Shown piece by piece: positions 10,136-41,262 of a stretch of DNA of 64,000 bases (the first letter of the stretch is position 1; each line of letters starts with the position of its first letter). The notes under the pieces are model-generated. The model made no database searches, had not been told where the DNA came from, and saw nothing but the letters and a program-made list of their open reading frames with translations. The DNA is taken from positions 81,592 through 145,591 of the forward strand of contig CACMQN010000001.1 of NCBI GenBank assembly GCA_902615855.1, written 5' to 3'. Source of the DNA: an uncultured Candidatus Actinomarina sp. GTDB lineage: Bacteria; Actinomycetota; Acidimicrobiia; Actinomarinales; Actinomarinaceae. Position numbers and translations under genes: made by a program.

Positions 10136-10765
10136 ATGATGAGAAAAACTATCAATAAGTCTCTTCCATATATTGTTGGAATAATTATCGGCATCGTAAG
10201 TTTTTTACCATTTACAAGACCAACATCTACAGCCGCATTCCTAACTGGTTTTGGGAAAGATGCTATTAAACAGTGGAATTATTATCTTGATTACGGATTA
10301 GAGTCTCAAAATATTTGGCAAAGGGCTTATGTTTCATTATTAGGATTACTACCTAGCGCTAGTCCCGAAGTTATTTATCTGCAGACAAGTTTTGATGACG
10401 GGGGAGAGTCACTGTCTGGTAATTGCAGCTACACACTATCAGGAGAAGTTCCTGATGCACGTTACTGGAGTTATGCAATTTATGGAAATGATAATTATTA
10501 TCTACAAGATCCTAATAGCTTATTTGATGAACCAACTTTTGATGATTTGTTTGCTCAAGTTACAAATGGAAGCGAGCTTACATCGATAAGTGCTGAAAAT
10601 TACATGATAAAAATAGATAATAATCTAATTAATCAAAATGGAACATTAAGTCATTTTGGAAATGATTTCACCTTAATTTATAGAATTTACGGACCTAACT
10701 TAAATTATTATGAAAATCCAATATCGATTCCTGTCGCAAGCATTATCAATGAAGGTTGTAAATGA
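10136..10765 (+). CDS. DUF1214-like membrane-anchored protein
   Basis: N-terminal TM helix. ARYWSYAIYG and LIYRIYGPN resemble DUF1214 blocks. Confidence 0.4.
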   Translation: MMRKTINKSLPYIVGIIIGIVSFLPFTRPTSTAAFLTGFGKDAIKQWNYYLDYGLESQNIWQRAYVSLLGLLPSASPEVIYLQTSFDDGGESLSGNCSYTLSGEVPDARYWSYAIYGNDNYYLQDPNSLFDEPTFDDLFAQVTNGSELTSISAENYMIKIDNNLINQNGTLSHFGNDFTLIYRIYGPNLNYYENPISIPVASIINEGCK

Positions 10766-11301
10766 AAAGTTGGACTATAAAAATTTCAATAGTTGCTATG
10801 ATCACCCACGTTTTTTTAATTTTTATGGGTCCATATATAGTTATGAATCAATTGGATAGGAATATTGCTGATGCTATCGAAAATCCCTTCGACGGCTGTG
10901 AGGATACTTATGACGGTATAATCGGATATTTAGATCAGGTTTGTATCTCTAAAAGATCCTCAACAAGAATGCCAAATTATGATTTTATGTACACCATGTG
11001 CAGATATGACTTAGCTAATGGGGATTTATTTGTATCTATGCCCGTACCAGAAGATGAACGTTACTGGGTTGTACATGTGCACAATAACAATACAACTGTT
11101 GAGTTTAAAATTAATAATTTACAAATAGAAAATGAAAGGTATGAATTTTTGGTAACAAGCTCAAATAACCAAAATGAAGAAATAAAAACTATAAAAACAA
11201 CAAATAAAGGAACAGTTTTTTGGAGACTATTAGTTAATACAGCAGATGAGATCTCTAAATTAGATGAGTTTAGAAGGACTACAGTTTGTGAATACAGATA
11301 A
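10762..11301 (+). CDS. DUF1254-like membrane-anchored protein
   Basis: N-terminal TM helix. DLFVSMPVPEDERYWVVHVHNNNT resembles the DUF1254 core. ATGA overlap with the upstream gene. Confidence 0.35.
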   Translation: MKSWTIKISIVAMITHVFLIFMGPYIVMNQLDRNIADAIENPFDGCEDTYDGIIGYLDQVCISKRSSTRMPNYDFMYTMCRYDLANGDLFVSMPVPEDERYWVVHVHNNNTTVEFKINNLQIENERYEFLVTSSNNQNEEIKTIKTTNKGTVFWRLLVNTADEISKLDEFRRTTVCEYR

Positions 11302-12526
11302 TAACTACAATCCTATTGATTTATCAAAAAGTTTTTTAACAAAAAAAACATTGCCTAATCAGGTAAGTATTCAAGAGGGTTTCAATGTTGAGTTGTTTGA
11401 AGTTAATAAAAATTTAGCTTTCATAAAAAATTTTGGAAATGTAGCTGCTTTTAAAGATGATACATCTGCATTGTTAATAGATACAGGTATGGGAGTTTCA
11501 TCTGTTCAAGTTGTAAGTAAATTAAAGGAATGGGGAATTGAAAATGTGGAATTTATTATTTATACCCATGGACATGTAGATCACGTTACTGGTACTGATT
11601 ACATCATTAATGCATTTGAGAATAGCAACACAGAAGTTATTGGTCATAAAAATATTGTTAATAGGTTTGATCGCTATAAAAAAACTATTGGATATAACGG
11701 TATTATTAACCAAAGACAGTTTGGATTACCTTCTCCGGTTTTTCCTAATGAATTTACTTATCCTGATACAACATACGATGATAGTTATGAACTTGAATTT
11801 AACAATTCCGTACTGAAGTTGTTTCACGGGAAAGGTGAAACTGATGACGCAACCTATATTTATTCAGAAAAAGACAATGCTCTATTCACAGGTGATTTTT
11901 TTATATGGTCCTTACCGAATGCTGGAAATCCATCCAAATCTCAAAGATATGTGGGTTCGTGGGGAGAAGTGCTTAAAGAAATGTCTAAATTAAATTCGGA
12001 ATATCTTTTTCCTGGTCATGGTCCATTGATCAAAGGAAAAAAAGAAATTACTAAAGTACTTCTTGATACAAGTAATTGTATGTTGTGGATTGAGGACAAT
12101 GTTTTATCATTGATGAATAGTGGACATTCTCTTCGAGAAATTCATTCAAAATTATCACTTCCTCCTGAATTTCAACAGCCATATTTAGTTTCTGTATATG
12201 ATGACTTCAAATTTCTAATTAATTCTGTATGGAGACAATATGGAGGTTGGTACTCAGGAACTCCATCGGAATTAAAACCTCCTGCTCTTGATGAAATAGG
12301 AAAAACCTATCTTGACATGGCTGGAGGAGAAGATAATTTACTTGAATTCTTAAACTCATTAGTTTCTTCAGAAAAATATAAAGAAGCGTCTGTTATTGTT
12401 GACGCCGTATATACAGTAAACAAAGAGTTATTTAGTGAGATTAAAAAAGAGATTTATTTTAATTTATCTGAACAAGAAACTTCATTAATGGCAAAAGGTA
12501 TTTATAAATTTGATCTTGATTCATGA
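11264..12526 (+). CDS. MBL-fold metallohydrolase, alkyl/aryl-sulfatase-like
   Basis: HxHxDH motif (YTHGHVDHVTG) with later His/Asp ligands (FPGHGP). Start is uncertain: ATG 11264 overlaps the upstream gene by 38 nt, and the in-frame GTG at 11288 is an alternative. Confidence 0.65.
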   Translation: MSLEGLQFVNTDNNYNPIDLSKSFLTKKTLPNQVSIQEGFNVELFEVNKNLAFIKNFGNVAAFKDDTSALLIDTGMGVSSVQVVSKLKEWGIENVEFIIYTHGHVDHVTGTDYIINAFENSNTEVIGHKNIVNRFDRYKKTIGYNGIINQRQFGLPSPVFPNEFTYPDTTYDDSYELEFNNSVLKLFHGKGETDDATYIYSEKDNALFTGDFFIWSLPNAGNPSKSQRYVGSWGEVLKEMSKLNSEYLFPGHGPLIKGKKEITKVLLDTSNCMLWIEDNVLSLMNSGHSLREIHSKLSLPPEFQQPYLVSVYDDFKFLINSVWRQYGGWYSGTPSELKPPALDEIGKTYLDMAGGEDNLLEFLNSLVSSEKYKEASVIVDAVYTVNKELFSEIKKEIYFNLSEQETSLMAKGIYKFDLDS

Positions 12527-13042
12527 TTAAAGGTCATGAATTACACTAGTAACAACACCCCAGATTTGTGCTTCACTTTTTCCATTCAACTCTATAGGCT
12601 CATAGTCTTCATTCTCAGGTTGCAAGACAACTGATGATCTTTTTTTAATATATCTTTTTACTGTTAGCTCACCATCAATTATTGCTATTACCACATTTCC
12701 ATTTTCGGCTTTGATGCTTTTATCGACTACCAAAATATCATTTGGGAATATTCCAGCGTTTATCATTGAATTTCCTGATGCCCTTACCAAAAATGTTGAT
12801 GCAGGATGTTTTACTAGATATTGGTTGAGGTCAATCTTGTCTTCTAAGTAGTCATCTGCAGGGGATGGGAAGCCTGCTGCAACTCGGTCTCCGTATAGAG
12901 GAATTTCGTAAAGGCCTTTACTTACTATTTCTGAAATGTATTTAACTTTACTTTCGGGTACGCGAATCGCTTTAGTTGCCTCGCCATACTTGCCTTGACC
13001 TCTAGGCCTTCCTGCTCCTTTTCTTGCTCCACCTTTTGGCAT
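12527..13042 (-). CDS. umuD: UmuD-like S24 self-cleaving peptidase with extended basic N-terminus
   Basis: Aligns by eye to E. coli UmuD (PLYGDRVAAGFPSPADDYLEDKIDLNQYL, ASGNSM Ser, TVKR Lys). It carries about 35 extra N-terminal residues, MPKGGARKGAGRPRGQGK... Confidence 0.8.
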   Translation of the reverse strand: MPKGGARKGAGRPRGQGKYGEATKAIRVPESKVKYISEIVSKGLYEIPLYGDRVAAGFPSPADDYLEDKIDLNQYLVKHPASTFLVRASGNSMINAGIFPNDILVVDKSIKAENGNVVIAIIDGELTVKRYIKKRSSVVLQPENEDYEPIELNGKSEAQIWGVVTSVIHDL

Positions 13043-13065
13043 AAAAATGTCTTTCTTTTATCTTA

Positions 13066-13083
13066 GAATAGTGTACAGTATTC
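13066..13083. promoter_or_regulatory. 18-nt imperfect palindrome GAATAGTGTACAGTATTC in the umuD-like/umuC divergent promoter region
   Basis: 16 of 18 positions are self-complementary. It overlaps a TAGAAT -10-like hexamer (13064..13069). It has no GAAC-N4-GTTC core. Confidence 0.4.
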
Positions 13084-13100
13084 AAAGAAATAAATAAAGA

Positions 13101-14366
13101 ATGAAAAATAAAATTTTTGCTTTAGTCGATTGTAATAACTTTTACGCATCTTGTGAGAGGGTGTTTAATCCAAAACTGGAAGGAAAACCTATCGTTGTTC
13201 TCTCAAACAACGATGGATGTATTGTTGCAAGATCAAATGAGGCAAAAGCGTTAGGCATTCCAATGGGTGCTCCACTATTTAAATATGAACAATTGATAAA
13301 GAGAAACAATGTCCATGTATTTTCATCGAACTATACATTTTATGGAGACATGTCAGCAAGAGTAATGACATCTTTACGATCAATAGTTGGAGACATCGAA
13401 ATCTATTCAATTGATGAAGCTTTTTTAGATATTAGCAAGTTTTATTATTGCGACTTAACGGAGACAGCGAATGAAATACGGAGACTAATAAAGCAGTGGA
13501 CAGGGATACCAATCTCGATTGGCATTGGACCCTCAAAAACCCTGGCAAAAGCTGCAAACAGACAAGCAAAAAAATATGAGGAATCAAATGTCTTTGATAT
13601 ACGTGAAGAGTCAGAGAGAGTACGAGTTCTAAAAGACCTCGAACTAGAAGATATATGGGGTATCTCAACAAGATGGGGTAGAAGACTAAGAAAAATTGGT
13701 ATCAATTCAGCATATGAACTCTCAACAGGAGATCCAAGACAGATACGAAAGACTCTGAGCATTGTAGGAGAGAGAATCTATCATGAGCTAAATGGCATAT
13801 CATGTATGCAAATTGAAGAAGTTAAAAATAAGAAAAACATAATTTCTTCAAAGTCGTTTGGGAAAAAAGTAACAAAAGTATATGAACTTGAAGAAGCTGT
13901 TTCAACATACGTTGCAAGAGCTTGTGAAAAGTTACGAGCTCAGAATTCAAGAGCTGGAGGTATTCACGTATTTTTAAGAACAAGTCCATTTATAGAAGAT
14001 GAAAGAAAATATAGCAATGGAATGAGCTCTTTCTTTACAATTCCAACTAGTAATACTTCAAAAATAATCAAAGAAGCGAAAAGATTAACAAATAAACTTT
14101 TTTTGCCAAATTATGAGTATCAGAAAATAGGCGTAATACTCTTGGATATATCTGATGCCAAATATGAACAGTTTAGCTTCTATGAGCATGAGAATTATGA
14201 GAGATCCGATATTCTCATGGATTCACTAGACCAGTTAAATGATAGATTTGGAAATGGAACTCTATTTATGGGAGCACAGGGAATTCAAAAAAACTGGAAA
14301 ATGCGAGCTGATAGAAAATCAGCTGCTTACACAACCAAATTGATAGACATTCCTAAAGTTGATTAA
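13101..14366 (+). CDS. umuC: Y-family DNA polymerase, UmuC-like (Pol V catalytic subunit)
   Basis: [51 protein letters not shown] and YSIDEAF are near-identical in pattern to the E. coli UmuC N-terminus. Confidence 0.9.
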
Positions 14367-15622: not shown

Positions 15623-16375
15623 ATGAGTGTTATAATAAATTTTATGAAAACTGTACTTATCACAGGTGGGACCAGGGGTATTGGTTTGGCAATCGCTGAA
15701 AAATATTTAAGTGATGGAGAGTCTAATGTTGTTGTTACAGGAAGAAAACCTGACACCTTAGAAGAGCTTCAAAATTCTGTAAATAACGATAACTTTCATA
15801 CAGTTATGGCAAAAGCTGATGATGAAGAAGCAGCTGATCACACTTGCAAAGAAATAAATGAAAAATTTGGATCTCTTGATATTTTGATCAACAATGCAGG
15901 AACAAATCCTGCTGGTGGAAACTTAATGGATGTTGATATGGGAGCTCTTGAAAAAACATGGGCAGTAAATCAAAAAGGTCCATTACTTTGGGCAAGAGCA
16001 GCATACAAAAATGAATTAAGTACAGCTATTATGAACATCTGTTCTGTAGCAGGATATTTTCCGTCTGATCTAATGGGGGCATATAATATTTCTAAAGCTG
16101 CTTTAATTTATATGACAAAGCAGCTTGCTTATGAATTAGCACCTGATATTAGAGTAAATGGTGTTGCTCCAGCAATTGTTAGAACAAGGCTCTCACAACT
16201 TTTATGGGAAAATGAAGAATATTCAAAAAATCTACATTTGCTTCAAAAACTTGGAGAACCAGAAGATATTGCAGAAGCGGTATACTTCCTATGCTCAGAA
16301 GAAGCTGGCTGGATAACTGGGGAAATACTAACTGTTGATGGTGGGTTTAGTATTAACGGAAATTCTTTATCTTAG
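15623..16375 (+). CDS. SDR family oxidoreductase
   Basis: TGGTRGIGLAIA cofactor motif, NNAG, YNISKAAL catalytic motif. The start may be the second ATG at 15644 (MKTVLITGG). Confidence 0.85.
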   Translation: MSVIINFMKTVLITGGTRGIGLAIAEKYLSDGESNVVVTGRKPDTLEELQNSVNNDNFHTVMAKADDEEAADHTCKEINEKFGSLDILINNAGTNPAGGNLMDVDMGALEKTWAVNQKGPLLWARAAYKNELSTAIMNICSVAGYFPSDLMGAYNISKAALIYMTKQLAYELAPDIRVNGVAPAIVRTRLSQLLWENEEYSKNLHLLQKLGEPEDIAEAVYFLCSEEAGWITGEILTVDGGFSINGNSLS

Positions 16376-16815
16376 TCATTCCAAACATTCAAACATAATT
16401 CTTCGTCAAAGTATCTATTTATATAATTTTTTCCTATAAATGTAGGTTGCTTTATGATGGCTTCTATCAGCCAAATTTTTGTACCATTAACTAAATGTCC
16501 TCCAAATGCCTTCCCATCTTTATCAGATACAGATATATGAATATGAACCAATGGTTTATTTTCAAATAATGTGATGTTTCCAAGACCGCTCAGTACCTCA
16601 AAACCACCATCAAAAAAGTGCTCTTCGTATTCTTTAGTTTCTTGGTTAAAGTAAACAACATTTAAATTTTGAACAGCACCTATAAATGAAATTTCAGCAG
16701 TCTTTATTTTATTGTTGATTGCATATTCAGTTAATGATTCGAGTAAATAGGTATCCTTATCAAATTTTACATAGTGAACTTTTTGTCTATTTACTTTATA
16801 TTTACGGGTGTACAT
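16372..16815 (-). CDS. PPC (DUF296) domain protein
   Basis: LVHIHISVSDKDGKAFGGHL resembles the PPC/DUF296 core. Lies 14 nt downstream of the SbtA-like gene on the same strand. Confidence 0.5.
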   Translation of the reverse strand: MYTRKYKVNRQKVHYVKFDKDTYLLESLTEYAINNKIKTAEISFIGAVQNLNVVYFNQETKEYEEHFFDGGFEVLSGLGNITLFENKPLVHIHISVSDKDGKAFGGHLVNGTKIWLIEAIIKQPTFIGKNYINRYFDEELCLNVWND

Positions 16816-16829
16816 TTATTACAGCTTAA

Positions 16830-17768
16830 CTAACCTATAAAATATTTTGCAAGCTCGTGATAGACGGGTATGCCAATGATTATGTTAAAAGGAAAAGTCA
16901 CACCTAAGCTCAAACCTAGATAAATTGCTGGATTTGCATCTGGAATTGCATCTTTAACTACTGCTGGAACAGCAATATAGCTTGCACTGGCCGTCAAAAC
17001 CATAAGTAATGTTGCATTTCCAATTGAAAGTGCAAAATAGTTTGATGCAAATAATGCTAAAAGAGATCCTATAAGGGGAGTGATTAATGCAAAAAGTATT
17101 AAAGTTTTACCTTTACCCTTTAACTCTTTAAGTCTTTTGGCTACACGAGTTCCCATCACAAACAAAAATAAATATAAAACATATTCAAACAAAGTATCAG
17201 TGAAGAATTCAACATTATCTGAAATTGTGCCTTGGATACTAAATCCAATTATCAGTGAGGATATTAACAATACATTTGGCACTTCTAAAAATGCTGTTTT
17301 TATTATTTCAAAATTATTTTGTCCAACGTTACGCTTTCTTGTAATTAGAAAAAGTGCCATAAAAATTGCAGGGAATTCCATTACAACGAGAACAGCAGAC
17401 ATATAGTCATCAAATGATTGAGAGTTACTTGATAAATAGGATATTGCAGTAACAAAAGTAATTGCACTTACAGAACCGTATGTGCCAGAAAGAGCAGCTG
17501 CATCATCAATATTTAAATTATTTCTTAAATATAAATAAGAAAGTATTGGAATAAGCAATGCAAAAAATATTCCAAGGGATATAGCGTTAACAACTTCGCT
17601 AGTGAATCCGTTTTGTTGCAAACTGATACCACCTTTTAGACCCAATGAAAGAAGCAAGTAATATCCTAAATATTTTGATAAAGCTGTTGGCAATGTATCG
17701 TTAAATATTCGTCCAATGATGATGCCAGAAATAAATAAAATAATTGCTGGATTAAGTATGGCTTCCAT
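16830..17768 (-). CDS. SbtA-like sodium-dependent bicarbonate transporter family permease
   Basis: Blocks AAALSGTYGSVSAITFVTA and ASASYIAVPAVVKDAIPDANPAIYLGLSLGVTFPFNI parallel the cyanobacterial SbtA blocks recalled from memory. Confidence 0.6.
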   Translation of the reverse strand: MEAILNPAIILFISGIIIGRIFNDTLPTALSKYLGYYLLLSLGLKGGISLQQNGFTSEVVNAISLGIFFALLIPILSYLYLRNNLNIDDAAALSGTYGSVSAITFVTAISYLSSNSQSFDDYMSAVLVVMEFPAIFMALFLITRKRNVGQNNFEIIKTAFLEVPNVLLISSLIIGFSIQGTISDNVEFFTDTLFEYVLYLFLFVMGTRVAKRLKELKGKGKTLILFALITPLIGSLLALFASNYFALSIGNATLLMVLTASASYIAVPAVVKDAIPDANPAIYLGLSLGVTFPFNIIIGIPVYHELAKYFIG

Positions 17769-19630: not shown

Positions 19631-20080
19631 ATCTGGAAATTACTAGGTAAAACATTCTCATATTGGCCAACTTGGCTCGTCAAGTTAATAACAACTGCCC
19701 ATTCAAATATTATGAAATTCAATCATACATTTATTGGCAGAAAGCTAATAGGGGAGAATATTTTACTTCTAGAAACAGTTGGACGTAAATCAAATAAATT
19801 AAGAAAAACACCTTTGACTTATGTTGTAATTGATGAAGGATATCTTGTTGCAGCCTCATATGGAGGGAGAGACAAAACTCCTGATTGGTTTTTCAACATA
19901 AATACAGACAAAGTAAAAATACTCGTAAATAAGGAATACAAAGATGCAAAGCCTTTAATTGTTGATGAACTTGAAAAGGAAGAGTATTGGAAACTATTAA
20001 CTGATTTCTATCCTACTTTTAATCTTTACAGGTCAAAAACAGAGAGAGATATTCCTTTAGTAAAACTTGTTACAAATTAG
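19631..20080 (+). CDS. deazaflavin (F420H2)-dependent nitroreductase family (Ddn/DUF385-like), probable AUC start
   Basis: LLLETVGRKSNKLRKTPLTYVV..AASYGGRDKTPDWFFN is the family core. The frame is open back to 19628 and encodes a plausible N-terminal helix (WKLLGKTFSYWPTWLVKLITTAHSNI). That stretch has no ATG/GTG/TTG; ATC at 19631 lies 6 nt after GGAG (19621..19624). The ORF-track ATG at 19712 would give a truncated 122-aa protein. Confidence 0.6.
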   Translation: MWKLLGKTFSYWPTWLVKLITTAHSNIMKFNHTFIGRKLIGENILLLETVGRKSNKLRKTPLTYVVIDEGYLVAASYGGRDKTPDWFFNINTDKVKILVNKEYKDAKPLIVDELEKEEYWKLLTDFYPTFNLYRSKTERDIPLVKLVTN

Positions 20081-21059
20081 GTTTTATATTTGGGCCGTTT
20101 CTTACCACGGTATTCCATAGTGTTGAATAATGATCAAGGTCTTCAGGATTTACATGAGGAAGTACCATATTTTTCCATGTTTCATGCAAAGGATCTGAAG
20201 CATTTTTGTACAAATCTAATCCAACGGGAATTCTTTCTACAACTGTTCTAAGACTCATTGGCGTTTCAATATTGATGCTTATGTCATCAGATAAAAATGA
20301 GTTATTAATTTCAATAGCCAATTTGATTATTAGATCTGTGAATTCATTTTGTAATTTTGGATATCGTTTTTTAAATATTGATTCAAGCTGTTCTTTGTTA
20401 GGAAAAGGTTTATCCCAAATAACCCATCGATCAGCGAATGCTTTGTTTAGAGTTTGTGTTCCCGCATAATCTCTTAAGCTCGTTGGATTCATTGTTCCAA
20501 AAATATATGAGTCATTTCTTAATTCAATAACTTCTCCATTAGGAAGCTCTAGTTTTTTGTGTCTATCTAATAGTGAATGTAAAGCAAATAAAACTTCTGG
20601 TCCAGCTGCATTTAATTCTGATAGATTAATAATGGAAGGTCCTCTTAGTGCTCTGGTTAATTCGCCATCCTGCCATTTGGAATCTGTTCCACCAACTCCA
20701 TCTCCATATAATTGAACTGAACCAAGTAAAGTCACGTCTCTAACTTCACCTGATAAAGGAATCCGATAGTATGGATAATTTAATTTTGCAGCTAATTGCT
20801 CTATATCGTGATCCTTACCTGTTCCCATATGTCCTTTAAGTGCAATATGAATCGGGATTTCATTTTTAAACGTATCTTCTTTGCTCTTAATAATTTGAGC
20901 TAATTTATATTGAATTCCAAAGTCTACATAATTTTTATCTAACTCAGGTATGCGTTCGGCTCTTGATTCATAATCAGGAATTGATTTTGATAGCTTACAT
21001 TCATTTAGCTTTATATCACCCTTACCAGTTGGGTTTTTAAATATTTGTTCAGCCATCAA
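20070..21059 (-). CDS. CobS-like (MoxR-clade) AAA+ ATPase with atypical Walker motifs
   Basis: KGHMGTGKDHDIEQLAAKLNYPYYRI parallels the CobS motif GYHGTGKSTHIEQVAARLNWP (recalled). Sensor-1 FGTMNP and ADRW are present. Walker A is GK-D (D83) and Walker B is IINLSE (S147). Confidence 0.7.
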   Translation of the reverse strand: MMAEQIFKNPTGKGDIKLNECKLSKSIPDYESRAERIPELDKNYVDFGIQYKLAQIIKSKEDTFKNEIPIHIALKGHMGTGKDHDIEQLAAKLNYPYYRIPLSGEVRDVTLLGSVQLYGDGVGGTDSKWQDGELTRALRGPSIINLSELNAAGPEVLFALHSLLDRHKKLELPNGEVIELRNDSYIFGTMNPTSLRDYAGTQTLNKAFADRWVIWDKPFPNKEQLESIFKKRYPKLQNEFTDLIIKLAIEINNSFLSDDISINIETPMSLRTVVERIPVGLDLYKNASDPLHETWKNMVLPHVNPEDLDHYSTLWNTVVRNGPNIKPNL

Positions 21060-23008
21060 GCAACTCCTGTAGATTCTTCAATATTCTTTATAAGTATATC
21101 CTTTGTGATGTTTACTATTGAATGAATTAACTCTTCAGGTTCATTTATTTGGGTTTTATTTATATATTCTTTCCAAGTGCCTCTTTCTCCAATACCTATC
21201 CCAATTACATCAATCCCAACTTTGGAAGCATAATTGATAGAACTTTTTAAATCCTCAAGCGATCCTCTTGTCATACCGTCTGACAGTACGGCTAAAAGTT
21301 TTGTTTTAGAACCTTTTTCTAGAAGTCTTTTTGTAGAAAACATTATATTTCTTTCATCAACATTGGTTCCTCTTTCAAACATGCTTGCAGGAGGGTGATC
21401 GAAATTAGATTCTATTTTGTCTAATGACTCCCTTAAGTTTCTTGAAAATTCAATTAAACCTATAAACTTTTCATAATTTTCTTTCCATGAATCATCAAAC
21501 TTTTTAATAAAATAATGATTTGTTGTATTGAAGTAATATTCAGCATTCGATCCATAATTTGTATTTAGCATCGAGGAAACAGCCATCTTTCTTTTTAAAT
21601 ATAATTCTTCATTCTCTAATTCATCTGCCGCAAAGCTCCTATTAAAAATTGCAACTTCAAAATCAATATCTAATTCATGGCAGATTTGTGCAAGATAACT
21701 TGCTCCAATTAATGCTGCTGGGAGAGACCAGGGATAGAAATCACCTTTATCTTTTTCAAGCATTGAACCACTTCCATCAATTAGTAAAGATACTGCATAA
21801 GATTTGTTTGAAAGCCGTTGTTTTTGTTCAAACATTCTTTCATACCTACCTGATGCAAGCATTAGAGGAACATGTGGTGATAAATCGCCCTGATCATAAC
21901 CGCTGATTCTGAGCCTTTTTTTATTATGTATAAAGTAAGGCTTTATTTTGTTTGTAACTTTGAATACGGGCAGATCCCATTCTTCCAACAAGGAGTTATA
22001 AGTATTTAATCCATTTGTATATAAATTTTTAAATGATTTTGGTAAATTAGTACTCAGTAATTTTGATACTTTACCATTTGGAAGATAAACGGTTGAGGAT
22101 GTTCCAACTTTTGAAACATGATCATCCATAAAGTTAAGCTTTTCATCCTCTGAATCTGCACCCTTTTTACCTAAGAATTTTTCTAAGGTATTACCTGATG
22201 TAATATTTGTACTAGAAGGAATTAAGACTTTGTTTAAATCGTCAATTACGGAGTCTTCAAAGTTTTCTATTGATTCTCTACGTTCTCCCAATGTTTGGTT
22301 ATCAACATCTGGTAATAGATTGTATCTTCTACAAATATCTGTAATTTCTATCGTTATATCGATAGTGTCTTCTATTAAGTTTTTATCATATGAAAAATTA
22401 TCTAATACTCTTAAAGTCTCTTTTAATGGTTCTTTAATATTTTTTGGATACTTTTCTATATCTAATTCAACATATCCTGTGATGTTATGAAAAAGCAATG
22501 TTAAAAATTTATTGAAAGGCTTTAAATTTTTTATGTTGATACTAGATTCTTTATAAATATCCTCGAGGATTGACTTAAGACCGTTAAAGTTTTTTACAAA
22601 TTGAAACTCATCATAGGAATGCACAAGTATTTCAAAAATATATTTCCCAAATGGACCCGCGAGAACTTCCAGAACTTCATCAATGTTAGTTAACCCTTCA
22701 GTGTCATCTTTATATTTTGTGAGATCTTCATCAACATTGAAATTATATTCTTCCATAGAATGGATAGCCTCATGGACTACAGTTCCAATTATCAATTCCT
22801 TAAATTCAAGTTCTGAATCTGAAACTGCATTAACCAAAATAGATGGATTTATGTTGATCTCGTTTTTGTTTTTACTTTTGGTTTTACCAAGATTAATAAC
22901 AATATTTGCATTATTGGTTTCGGATTGTATTAGTCGTGTAATTGCTGGACTAATTTTTTGAAATATTTCAATAATTTGAGTTTCTAAAGTTTTTTTCTTA
23001 AATTCCAT
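21056..23008 (-). CDS. CobT-like vWA-domain protein with N-terminal HExxH motif
   Basis: C-terminal vWA domain with an intact MIDAS (LLIDGSGSM ... LSDGM). N-terminal VVHEAIHS (H79-E-x-x-H83). 4-nt overlap with the downstream AAA+ gene. Confidence 0.6.
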   Translation of the reverse strand: MEFKKKTLETQIIEIFQKISPAITRLIQSETNNANIVINLGKTKSKNKNEININPSILVNAVSDSELEFKELIIGTVVHEAIHSMEEYNFNVDEDLTKYKDDTEGLTNIDEVLEVLAGPFGKYIFEILVHSYDEFQFVKNFNGLKSILEDIYKESSINIKNLKPFNKFLTLLFHNITGYVELDIEKYPKNIKEPLKETLRVLDNFSYDKNLIEDTIDITIEITDICRRYNLLPDVDNQTLGERRESIENFEDSVIDDLNKVLIPSSTNITSGNTLEKFLGKKGADSEDEKLNFMDDHVSKVGTSSTVYLPNGKVSKLLSTNLPKSFKNLYTNGLNTYNSLLEEWDLPVFKVTNKIKPYFIHNKKRLRISGYDQGDLSPHVPLMLASGRYERMFEQKQRLSNKSYAVSLLIDGSGSMLEKDKGDFYPWSLPAALIGASYLAQICHELDIDFEVAIFNRSFAADELENEELYLKRKMAVSSMLNTNYGSNAEYYFNTTNHYFIKKFDDSWKENYEKFIGLIEFSRNLRESLDKIESNFDHPPASMFERGTNVDERNIMFSTKRLLEKGSKTKLLAVLSDGMTRGSLEDLKSSINYASKVGIDVIGIGIGERGTWKEYINKTQINEPEELIHSIVNITKDILIKNIEESTGVA

Positions 23009-32487: not shown

Positions 32488-33558
32488 ATGGATAAAGACA
32501 GGGCAAAAAAACTAGATACAGTTTTTGATCAAATAGAAAAACAATTCGGTGAAGGATCATTAATGAAACTTGGTGCCGATAACATCAAAAAAATACCAGC
32601 TATTTCTACAGGAGCACTTTCAATTGATTTAGCTTTAGGTATTGGTGGAGTTCCAAAAGGTAGAGTCATAGAAATTTATGGACCAGAAGCTTCAGGTAAA
32701 ACTACATTATCCCTTCATGTTGCAGCTGAAGCACAAAAAGCTGGGGGTGTAGCAGCATTTATTGATGCTGAACATGCTCTTGATCCCGTATATGCCAGAG
32801 CATTAGGCGTTGATGTTGATGAACTTCTTGTTTCTCAACCAGATACCGGCGAACAAGCGCTTGAAATTGCAGACATGTTAATTCAATCTGGAGGTGTAGA
32901 TCTAGTAGTTATTGACTCTGTTGCAGCATTAGTTCCAAAAGCTGAGATTGAAGGAGAAATGGGTGATACTCATGTTGGTCTTCAGGCACGATTGATGTCA
33001 CAAGCCTTGCGTAAATTAACTGGTTCAATCAATAAATCAGGTACAACTGTGATCTTTATTAACCAAATCCGTGAAAAAATTGGCGTTATGTGGGGATCTC
33101 CTGAAACAACCAGTGGTGGTAGAGCTCTTAAATTCTATTCATCTGTAAGGATTGATGTTAGAAGAATTGAAACATTAAAGGTTGGACCAGAACAAATAGG
33201 AAACCGTGTAAGAGCCAAGATCGTAAAAAATAAAGTTGCTCCACCTTTTAAGGAAGCAGAGTTTGATATTATGTTTGGTCAAGGTATATCCAGAGAAGGA
33301 AGCCTTTTAGATGTTGCAGTAGAGCACGGTATTGCTAGAAAAGCAGGAGCTTGGTTTACATATGATGAAGTTCAACTTGGTCAAGGTAAAGAGAATTCTA
33401 AGCGTTTTCTAAGAGAGAATCCCGACCTTGCTTTACAGCTAGAGACAGATGTTTATAAAGCTGTTGGTCTTATTGAATCAGATGAAATTGAAGTTGTTGA
33501 AGATGAATCAACTGAAAATGAAGATGAATCTGCAGAAGAGACTAAAAACAAAAAATAA
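32488..33558 (+). CDS. recA: recombinase RecA
   Basis: [10 protein letters not shown] Walker [11 protein letters not shown], the L1/L2 regions and an acidic C-tail. AAGGAG RBS upstream. Confidence 0.98.
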
Positions 33559-35798: not shown

Positions 35799-36519
35799 AT
35801 CTTATATGTCAGGAACAGGCAATGATTTTATATGTACTGAATATGATCGAGACTTGTCAGATATAGAAATTATTTCAATTGTTAGTGACTCACTTTTTCC
35901 TATCGATGGAGTGATATTGGTAGAGGGTATAGATGATTCAACTGTGAAAATGCATTATTTTAATAATGACGGAACTCCTGCTGAACTATGTGTAAATGGT
36001 GTACGTTGTACAGCAAAGTTTGCAGTAGACAATAACTTAGTAAATACTAAAAATTTAATTGTCAGAGCTCCAGTTGGTGATATAAAAGCATTTGTTGAAA
36101 ATAATTATGTAAAAATTGAAGCACCTTTTCCTACGACTGGTGGAAGTATCGAAATTGATAGTTACATATGTACGACTAGTGAAGTTGGAAATCCTCATCT
36201 TATGGTTGAAGTCGATGATGTAGAGAGATTTGATCTCGATAAATTTTCAGTAAATGCCAGAAAACTAGATGTATTTTCTAATGGTATAAATATTGAAATC
36301 TTTTCGGTTGTTGAACGCAAATTTATTTACGCAAGAGTAAACGAAAGGGGGGTTGGAGAGACAGACGCATGTGGTTCTGGAGCTTTAGCTTTGTTTACTT
36401 ATTTAAGAGAAATTAATAAAGTTGATGATAATGCAGTTGTTTTATATCCTGGTGGAGAGCTTGAACTATCTTATGAAAATGAAAAGTTGTATTTAAAAGG
36501 TGAAGTTACATATCTCTAA
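35788..36519 (+). CDS. dapF: diaminopimelate epimerase
   Basis: MSGTGNDFI, catalytic Cys contexts NGVRC and ETDACGSGA, GNPH. Confidence 0.85.
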   Translation: MVNESYMSGTGNDFICTEYDRDLSDIEIISIVSDSLFPIDGVILVEGIDDSTVKMHYFNNDGTPAELCVNGVRCTAKFAVDNNLVNTKNLIVRAPVGDIKAFVENNYVKIEAPFPTTGGSIEIDSYICTTSEVGNPHLMVEVDDVERFDLDKFSVNARKLDVFSNGINIEIFSVVERKFIYARVNERGVGETDACGSGALALFTYLREINKVDDNAVVLYPGGELELSYENEKLYLKGEVTYL

Positions 36520-37093
36520 TTAACGAAACAACTTTTCCTATAGGTTGTATATTTTCATTCACGAGAATTTTTTCATAGTTTTTATTTGCAGGTACTAGAT
36601 ATTGTTTACCCTGAATATTTTTGAGAAATTTAATAGTACCTTCTGAATTATTTATAAGAAATGCACCTATATCTCCATTTTTAATTGGTTCATTTTTATT
36701 AATAATAACTAAATCCTTTTCATGAATTCCCTCATCGATCATCGAATCTCCCGATACTGATAATGCAAATAGATTAGATTTTTCATTAGTATCTGGATAA
36801 TTCACAGTTCCTATAACGTTTTCTTCAGCCATAAGTAAAGATCCTGCAGCAATTTCTCCTAGTATCGGAATTTTCTTATTCGAAAGTTGGTTGTTTACAG
36901 TTAAAGCACGAGATTTTTTATAGTTTTTTTGGAGTAATCCTGATTGAATTAGTTTTTCAAGGTGATATTGAACTGTGCTTGTTGATTTAAGACTCACACC
37001 TTCGCAAATTTCTCTTACTGAAGGTGCAAATCCATTTTTTTCGATAAATATATTTATATAATTTAAAATATTTTTTTGTTTTTCAGACACCAC
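36506..37093 (-). CDS. lexA: SOS repressor LexA
   Basis: N-terminal winged-helix (GFAPSVREI..STSTVQYHLEKL), Ala-Gly cleavage site (GEIAAGS), VSGDSM Ser and IKFLK Lys. GTG start. Confidence 0.9.
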   Translation of the reverse strand: MVSEKQKNILNYINIFIEKNGFAPSVREICEGVSLKSTSTVQYHLEKLIQSGLLQKNYKKSRALTVNNQLSNKKIPILGEIAAGSLLMAEENVIGTVNYPDTNEKSNLFALSVSGDSMIDEGIHEKDLVIINKNEPIKNGDIGAFLINNSEGTIKFLKNIQGKQYLVPANKNYEKILVNENIQPIGKVVSLIRDM

Positions 37094-39464: not shown

Positions 39465-39537
39465 GCGGAAGTAGCTCAGCTGGTAGAGCGTAACCTTGCC
39501 AAGGTTAAGGCCGCGGGTTCGAACCCCGTCTTCCGCT
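39465..39537 (+). tRNA. tRNA-Gly (GCC)
   Basis: Hand-folded cloverleaf: acceptor GCGGAAG/CTTCCGC, anticodon arm TAACC-TTGCCAA-GGTTA, T-loop TTCGAAC. No encoded CCA. Confidence 0.9.
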
Positions 39538-39541
39538 CACT

Positions 39542-39612
39542 GGCGACGTGGCGGAGTGGCTACGCAGAGGTCTGCAAAACCTTGTACACCGGTTCGATTC
39601 CGGTCGTCGCCT
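39542..39612 (+). tRNA. tRNA-Cys (GCA)
   Basis: Acceptor GGCGACG/CGTCGCC, anticodon arm GAGGT-CTGCAAA-ACCTT, T-arm ACCGG-TTCGATT-CCGGT. Lies 4 nt after tRNA-Gly. Confidence 0.9.
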
Positions 39613-41188: not shown

Positions 41189-41262
41189 GGGAGATTAGCT
41201 CAGTTCGGCAGAGCACTTGCTCGACACGCAAGGGGTCACAAGTTCAAATCTTGTATCTCCCA
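41189..41262 (+). tRNA. tRNA-Val (GAC) with unusual C at position 33
   Basis: Acceptor GGGAGAT/ATCTCCC, D-arm GCTC-AGTTCGGCA-GAGC, anticodon arm CTTGC-TCGACAC-GCAAG, T-arm ACAAG-TTCAAAT-CTTGT. Confidence 0.8.

Follow-up and report, generated by a model that had tools for sequence, protein, structure and literature searches.

A CobST-like AAA+/VWA gene pair of Acidimicrobiia with an exchanged Walker Ser/Asp pair and a conserved HExxH motif

A 64,000-nucleotide stretch from an uncultured Candidatus Actinomarina sp. (contig CACMQN010000001.1; hereafter the window, G+C ~31%) carries two adjoining genes on its minus strand, one for a CobT-like VWA adaptor (21056..23008, an open reading frame (ORF) of 650 aa) and one for a CobS-like AAA_5 ATPase (20070..21059, 329 aa), both at the positions given in an earlier note that had been made by reading the DNA alone. 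In the ATPase, the Ser/Thr that ends Walker A and the Asp of Walker B have changed places, and this exchange is real, conserved across the clade and beyond what chance would produce. CobST-like AAA+/VWA modules are already known as a kind; new here are the inverted Walker Ser/Asp and a retained zincin-like motif in the partner. We think it probable, with moderate confidence, that the pair forms a remodeling motor in the style of CobST and NorQD, in which the inverted Ser/Asp compensate each other and whose job is something other than inserting cobalt into the B12 precursor. The family amounts to a natural reciprocal-swap experiment, in which the Walker Ser and Asp were exchanged and then held invariant while the other catalytic residues were kept.

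The ATPase matched the Pfam family AAA_5 (1.8e-16) and PHROG 249, a phage CobS-like family labeled "porphyrin biosynthesis" (1e-28). Midasin gave the highest total among PDB sequences, summed over several AAA domains with a best single stretch of 41 bits; the best single-domain PDB relative was CobS (9ujv; 67.7 bits, 8.3e-18), followed by NorQ and CbbQ. BLASTP aligned the protein with Sphingomonas CobS at 29% identity (E 7e-25), bearing out the resemblance to CobS around the P-loop that the earlier note had claimed: GTGKSSHIEQVAARLNWP of CobS faces GTGKDHDIEQLAAKLNYP of the ATPase, and VFDEYD faces INLSELN. All six canonical CobS sequences carry G.HGTGKS and FDEYD, so that GTGKS and FDE in CobS correspond to GTGKD and LSE here. 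The HMMER alignment with the AAA domains of midasin gave the same picture, setting GxGK[ST] opposite GTGKD and hhLDELN opposite NLSELN. The midasin and CobS alignments together indicate that the Walker B assignment at IINLSE is right. The earlier note had allowed that a canonical DE might lie elsewhere; the ATPase contains no other DE able to serve as Walker B.

With residues numbered from the TTG start, as in that note, these alignments place D83 (20811..20813) at the Ser/Thr position of Walker A (GHMGTGKD, residues 76–83, 20811..20834) and S147 (20619..20621) at the Asp position of Walker B (IINLSE, residues 143–148, 20616..20633), which is the exchange first noticed from the letters. The rest of the site is conventional. 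The catalytic set described for CobS comprises the Walker A Lys, Walker B E142, sensor 1 N186, arginine finger R210 and sensor 2 R271 (bioRxiv 10.64898/2026.07.21.739949). Its equivalents in the ATPase, with positions checked by translation, are K82, E148, N191 (20487..20489), R211 (20427..20429) and R271 (20247..20249, aligned with MSPRT of CobS).

A scan limited to one genome for each species yielded 344 related stretches, and we compared the best 80 of these 344, which comprise Actinomarina lineages (77–100% identity) and other Acidimicrobiia (~58%, down to 57%). Counts for the ATPase rest on all 80 loci and those for the VWA protein on the 79 that include upstream sequence. K82, D83, S147, E148, N191, R211 and R271 are unchanged in 80/80 loci, in an alignment in which 139 of 329 columns are invariant; to the question raised at the outset, whether the GKD/SE combination is conserved in a clade, the answer is yes. 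D83 has the codons GAT and GAC, and for S147 each of the four TCN codons occurs (TCA, TCC, TCT and TCG). This synonymous turnover indicates that the residues themselves are under selection, and that we are not merely looking at unaltered DNA. Metagenomic orthologues beyond the genome loci extend the pattern, with GKD in 119 of 120 and GKE in one, and with Ser-Glu in Walker B in 120 of 120. One metagenomic orthologue (P0010) reads GTGKEQD instead of GTGKDHD and retains NLSELN, so the position after the Walker A Lys (K+1) tolerates Glu.

We also searched 1.8 billion cluster representatives with HMMER and examined the best 150. Among these, one further full-length cluster (58% identity), apart from fragments of the family, precedes the midasins, and no close outgroup was seen. 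Motifs of the form G..G.GK. in the same 150 representatives end in Thr or Ser in 537 of 559 cases and in Asp in ten, nine of which belong to this family. By sequence, the ATPase family appears compact, its named members all being Acidimicrobiia or unclassified Actinomycetota. In public records the ATPase is listed as "AAA family ATPase" and the VWA partner as "hypothetical protein", with no precomputed Pfam domain for the latter. The ATPase gene is 100% identical to one in QCMT01000001.1, from the single-cell genome AG-422-J23 of the OCS155 cluster / Candidatus Actinomarina.

The exchange touches residues of general importance. Ser/Thr of Walker A and Asp of Walker B, which form a hydrogen-bonded pair, are described as the sole two proton-transferring residues that P-loop nucleoside triphosphatases conserve strictly (PMC9599734), and the exceptions given in the main text of that work are Gly at K+1 in nucleoside monophosphate kinases and Glu in Walker B. 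A partial precedent comes from the sigma-54 activators, AAA+ ATPases with GKE in Walker A (GESGTGKE) and a canonical Walker B (PMC8871633), which indicates that an acidic residue at K+1 is compatible with an AAA+ site. These proteins share with our ATPase the acidic residue directly after the Walker A Lys, but they keep the Walker B Asp-Glu and belong to another clade with another function. In the literature that we searched, which was incomplete, neither a reciprocal Walker Ser/Asp exchange nor a GTGKD Walker A motif is described.

The VWA partner is, as judged by profile comparison, a remote homologue of CobT. An alignment of the partner from 79 loci matched five canonical CobT sequences in hhalign with 99.3% probability (E 2.5e-19) over 540 columns, and CobT (9uka_G) was the top PDB sequence match of a 62-member family profile, a match to the latter half of the VWA domain that is joined by a weak one in the N-domain. 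PHROG searches returned phrog_1576 and two phage CobT families. Pfam models fared less well: CobT_C (PF11775) gave 19.3 bits, under its threshold of 21, and a weak VWA match was seen; a distant orthologue (L059) had no CobT_C match. The Pfam CobT N-domain (PF06213), on which Sphingomonas CobT scores 286.9 bits and the CobT of phage T5S1 42.3 bits, did not match the partner at E <= 1.

A full-length AlphaFold2 model of the partner (mean predicted local distance difference test (pLDDT) 83) begins with an N-domain made of helices and a small sheet and continues with an acidic linker, a hairpin and helix, the segment 356–398 and a VWA fold. The N-terminal domain, alpha/beta and CobT_N-like, spans residues 1–262 (22223..23008; when modeled alone, pLDDT 88.9 and predicted template modeling score 0.85) and is followed by the low-confidence acidic linker (residues 263–303, 22100..22222; pLDDT <50 at 266–286); CobT itself has a disordered linker of ~90 residues (bioRxiv 10.64898/2026.07.21.739949). 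Residues 356–398 (21815..21943) are poorly modeled (pLDDT ~49–65) and well conserved, with invariant columns at P357, F359, N362, R365, S369, G370, D372, G374, D375, S377, P378, G387, Y389, R391 and E394, and they align with the region of CobT directly ahead of its MIDAS (metal ion-dependent adhesion site). CobT puts a shaft into the CobS ring (bioRxiv 10.64898/2026.07.21.739949) and NorD a finger into the NorQ pore (PMC13036017); by analogy, we infer that residues 356–398 may act as such a pore-inserting shaft. The VWA domain (residues 399–650, 21059..21814) accounts for all Foldseek matches of the full-length model to the PDB, namely the NorD VWA domain (9qh6_G, 3.7e-7) and the MIDAS domains of Rea1/MDN1. 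Its MIDAS is intact, as had been claimed: 79/79 loci keep D411, S413 and S415 of the DxSxS motif (21764..21778) and D577 (21278..21280), which is aligned to the SDG aspartate in CobT.

Within the N-domain lies the second unusual feature, an HEAIH sequence (H79, E80 and H83; residues 79–83, 22760..22774). The earlier note had left room for this motif not being conserved, yet HExxH is kept by 79/79 loci and, among distant orthologues, by 120/120. Only 15 of 262 N-domain columns (~6%) are invariant, and H79, E80, H83 and E134 (22607..22609) are four of them. E134 is the candidate third metal ligand, giving the combination of HExxH and downstream Glu that marks gluzincins and M48-like peptidases, and its column holds Glu or Asp in the Acidimicrobiia, phage and canonical CobT groups alike. 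Another glutamate, E129, is kept in other Acidimicrobiia, phage and canonical CobT proteins and is Val or Ile in Actinomarina.

Phages carry related pairs of an AAA_5 ATPase and a CobT-like VWA protein, for example Gordonia phage Linetti gp90/gp89 and Zobellviridae phage T5S1 ORF16/18 (PHROG 249 and 1576), and like the Acidimicrobiia pair they have no CobN annotated nearby. The phage ATPases differ from ours in having a canonical GKT and a length of ~520–530 aa with a ~200-aa N-terminal extension, and are ~25–27% identical to it. Their CobT-like partners combine HExxH with a MIDAS (Linetti, L087:4813-6738; Rhodococcus phage Perlina, L088:4817-6796; T5S1, L089:5129-6946), the N-terminal motif reading HEIGH, HEIAH and HEAGH across the three of three examined, and that of T5S1 is recognized by the Pfam CobT N-domain model. 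When the N-domain model was compared with predicted viral structures, the top twelve matches were, bar two unnamed, phage CobT/cobalamin-like or VWA/VWFA proteins, the best being a CobT-like protein of Gordonia phage GMA7 (TMq 0.64). In the joint alignment, the HExxH of Acidimicrobiia and phages stands opposite A-x-A-L-R in canonical CobT. This distribution suggests that the motif is ancestral to the CobT-like N-domain, having been lost by the canonical, CobN-coupled CobT and retained here. The earlier note had set HEAIH apart from canonical CobT; canonical CobT does indeed have no such motif, but it is not foreign to the CobT family at large, as phage relatives carry it.

The conserved motif raises the idea of an ATP-regulated protease, in which the HExxH domain would work as an active zinc peptidase, with its access to a substrate controlled by the AAA+ ring together with the VWA domain. 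Invariance of HExxH and the downstream Glu in a domain where some 6% of columns are invariant speaks for this, as does the reported likeness of the true CobT N-domain to an M48C peptidase domain (bioRxiv 10.64898/2026.07.21.739949), and an M16 peptidase gene is the divergent neighbor in many Acidimicrobiia. However, Foldseek matched the N-domain to no solved peptidase, no Pfam or NCBIfam peptidase model was hit, and the DUF2201-type metallopeptidases (PF13203/PF09967), put forward at the outset, did not appear at E <= 1. The M16 gene belongs to the general actinobacterial dapB synteny and is not beside the pair in Actinomarina, and a metal site might just as well be conserved for holding a metal that is to be delivered. 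We regard a dedicated protease as possible but doubtful.

What we favor instead is the remodeling motor, and NorQD, a MoxR-class chaperone that inserts metal into nitric oxide reductase (PMC13036017, PMC9976466), offers the mechanistic template: a VWA finger in an AAA+ pore, with ATP-driven remodeling that permits metal insertion. NorQ matches the ATPase at 5e-11, although it is smaller and has canonical Walker motifs, and the VWA domain of NorD (9qh6_G) is the best solved-structure match to that of the partner; an HExxH N-domain is not reported for NorD, and the NorQD genes sit with those of their client, while no client gene is evident beside this pair. Midasin (Rea1) is a further comparison, with six fused AAA_5 domains, each 31–35% identical to the ATPase, and a MIDAS domain that is a top structural match to the partner's VWA, but it is a eukaryotic single-chain giant acting on pre-60S ribosomes and has no HExxH domain. 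By analogy with CobST and NorQD, the ATPase would form a hexameric AAA+ ring, onto which the partner would dock through its N-domain while threading its pre-VWA segment into the central pore, leaving the MIDAS to grip a client protein by an acidic residue. Hydrolysis of ATP would then twist or pull the adaptor and so remodel the client, which is likely to be a metalloprotein or protein complex. At the active site, the carboxylate of D83 may coordinate Mg2+ directly, with S147 taking the second-shell hydrogen-bond position, so that the ATPase would still hydrolyze ATP. The N-domain HExxH and Glu may likewise still bind a metal ion, whether as a peptidase or as a metal-holding site.

Several results weigh against this scheme. 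The N-domain alone is only weakly similar to the canonical CobT N-domain (E 5.5e-4, probability 30%), and its model found nothing better than E 0.47 in the PDB by Foldseek, in a library that runs to April 2026 and does not contain the CobT structures. Clustering the neighborhoods of 31 loci yielded no convincing candidate for a client gene, and a LOG-like gene that follows the ATPase in other Acidimicrobiia is not at this position in Actinomarina. Finally, the precedents collected in PMC9599734 mean that the exchanged site could be one that only binds ATP or hydrolyzes it very slowly.

This last point leads to the view of the ATPase as a pseudo-enzyme, a ring, with or without bound nucleotide, that acts only as scaffold or switch while the VWA/HExxH partner is the real catalyst. 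In other P-loop NTPases, activity is lost on replacement of either the Ser/Thr of Walker A or the Asp of Walker B (PMC9599734), and here both are replaced. But a dead site would not need its catalytic Glu, sensor 1, arginine finger and sensor 2, all invariant in 80/80 loci. The exchange is reciprocal, the pair has no second ATPase gene coupled to it that might supply activity, and from Actinomarina to other Acidimicrobiia identity is far higher in the ATPase (~58%) than in the partner (~28%). We favor an active, compensated site over a dead one because one hydroxyl and one carboxylate are kept and all other catalytic residues are strictly retained, and we consider the pseudo-enzyme unlikely.

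If the remodeling motor does combine a functional swapped site with a zincin, it would provide a natural test of proton-relay models of nucleoside triphosphate hydrolysis and would reveal the ancestry of CobT's pseudo-peptidase domain; the comparison suggests that CobT is the degenerate descendant of a metal-binding or peptidase adaptor, in a family whose CobST cobaltochelatase motor has been seen structurally only recently. The pair's client is probably an important, so far unrecognized maturation step. More tentatively, and with rather less confidence than we have in the motor itself, we entertain a fuller version, in which the Ser/Asp exchange became fixed through the history of an Acidimicrobiia-wide motor whose functional zincin site matures or processes a housekeeping client.

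A more conventional account would make the pair a highly diverged but genuine aerobic cobaltochelatase CobST, with CobN encoded elsewhere in the genome. CobS and CobT (Brucella melitensis CobSTN, PDB 9ujv/9uka series) are the closest characterized single-domain relatives of both proteins, and one source labels an orthologue "cobaltochelatase CobS". The likeness extends to protein lengths (329 and 650 aa here, 328 and 637 aa in CobS and CobT), to the adjacency of the two genes and to the order of parts in the partner, which like CobT runs from an N-domain through a disordered or low-confidence linker and a pre-VWA segment to a MIDAS-bearing VWA domain. Sensor 1 Asn, arginine finger and sensor 2 Arg are shared too. 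Against this stand the 29% identity to CobS with Asp for Ser in Walker A and Ser for Asp in Walker B, the HExxH in place of the A-x-A-L-R of CobT, the undetected Pfam CobT N-domain and the reversed gene order. The CobS equivalog model (NCBIfam TIGR01650) scores the ATPase at 66.7 bits, far from its cutoff of 558.55, which excludes it from that family. The earlier note had reported no cobN or other cobalamin gene in the window, and this agrees with our results: the window holds no ORF longer than 791 aa and hence none of CobN length, Pfam annotation of the 29 flanking ORFs that reach 120 aa or more (9.1–37.1 kb) identified no cobalamin gene, and Rfam found no cobalamin riboswitch in the window, its matches there being three tRNA genes only (39465-39612 and 41189-41262).

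Because the CobS score lies under the cutoff, Pfam CobT is not matched and no CobN-length ORF or B12 gene is nearby, the pair does not, on sequence grounds, make a recognizable cobaltochelatase, in line with the earlier note's view of a CobS/CobT-like AAA+/VWA module distinct from that enzyme. The housekeeping synteny described below and the phage pairs that do without an annotated CobN nearby also argue against a cobaltochelatase, an account we judge very improbable. Our literature search on orphan CobST and on B12 in Actinomarinales found nothing relevant to this family. Two canonical cobS-cobT loci, of Sphingomonas (L081:1947-6721) and Cereibacter (L082:2273-6958), lie beside bolA-family and J-domain genes, not B12 genes, and in Cereibacter two small hypothetical genes separate cobS from cobT.

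The pair does fall into the broad MoxR/AAA_5–VWA class, as an AAA_5 ATPase encoded beside a VWA-MIDAS protein, although no MoxR-specific model in Pfam or NCBIfam matched it. A MoxR/VWA-type anti-phage or conflict system can be set aside almost entirely: AAA+/VWA pairs are known in such systems and actinophages carry related pairs, but no PADLOC defense model matched either protein, the position is fixed in a housekeeping neighborhood in all loci compared, and the phage relatives are only ~25% identical. Recent transfer from mobile elements was rejected as well, tblastn relatives on phages and plasmids being 25–30% identical.

The two genes are tightly joined. The junction reads ...GGA GTT GCT TGA TGG CT..., and the ATPase could start at TTG 21059, giving 329 aa and the 4-nt overlap described in the earlier note, or at ATG 21056, giving 328 aa and a 1-nt stop/start overlap (TGATG). 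The ATG is the more likely start, because 328 aa is the usual length of orthologues and there is a GGAG 8 nt upstream. Under either start the genes are translationally coupled, so the coupling that had been proposed holds while its 4-nt figure applies to the TTG start only. Overlap of the two genes is found in 79/79 loci, as is the order VWA then ATPase; this confirms the reversal that had been noticed relative to cobS-cobT, since the canonical loci in which both genes were identified (L081, L082 and L084-L086) have cobS before cobT. The three phage loci also run from ATPase to VWA, opposite to the Acidimicrobiia order. A promoter and terminator scan was uninformative, with counts within shuffle expectation and promoter-like sites fewer than the shuffle mean.

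The neighborhood of the pair is conserved housekeeping synteny, seen in 79/79 loci with upstream sequence; the near-complete contigs of Candidatus Actinomarina, among these loci, are only ~1 Mb and carry the pair. In Actinomarina it is divergent from dapB-dapA-ftsK; a DinB/MDMPI-like and a BtpA-family gene follow further downstream on the same strand as the pair, and a small F420H2 quinone-reductase-like gene lies between these and the ATPase. In the window, this F420H2-dependent quinone reductase-family gene (19712-20080, plus strand) is convergent with the ATPase gene, the two 3' ends overlapping by 11 nt. In other Acidimicrobiia, the divergent gene encodes an M16 peptidase, and a LOG/Lysine_decarbox-like gene comes after the ATPase, followed by the DinB-like and BtpA genes. 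This LOG-like (SLOG) gene of 360 aa lies on the same strand directly after the ATPase in L054:7005-8087 and in 21 other non-Actinomarina loci, which are most of those from outside Actinomarina, and it could be a functional partner or mere synteny.

Elsewhere in the window, a divergent pair of a umuD-like (Peptidase_S24) gene and a Y-family polymerase (IMS) gene, recA and a separate lexA occur at 12527-14366, 32488-33558 and 36506-37093. Adjoining DUF1214 and DUF1254 genes (10136-11301) precede a metallo-beta-lactamase/alkyl-sulfatase-like gene (11264-12526). On the minus strand, 16372-17768 holds a gene of the SbtA-like Na+-dependent bicarbonate transporter family and then a PCC-domain gene, a combination that is unusual in a streamlined heterotroph.

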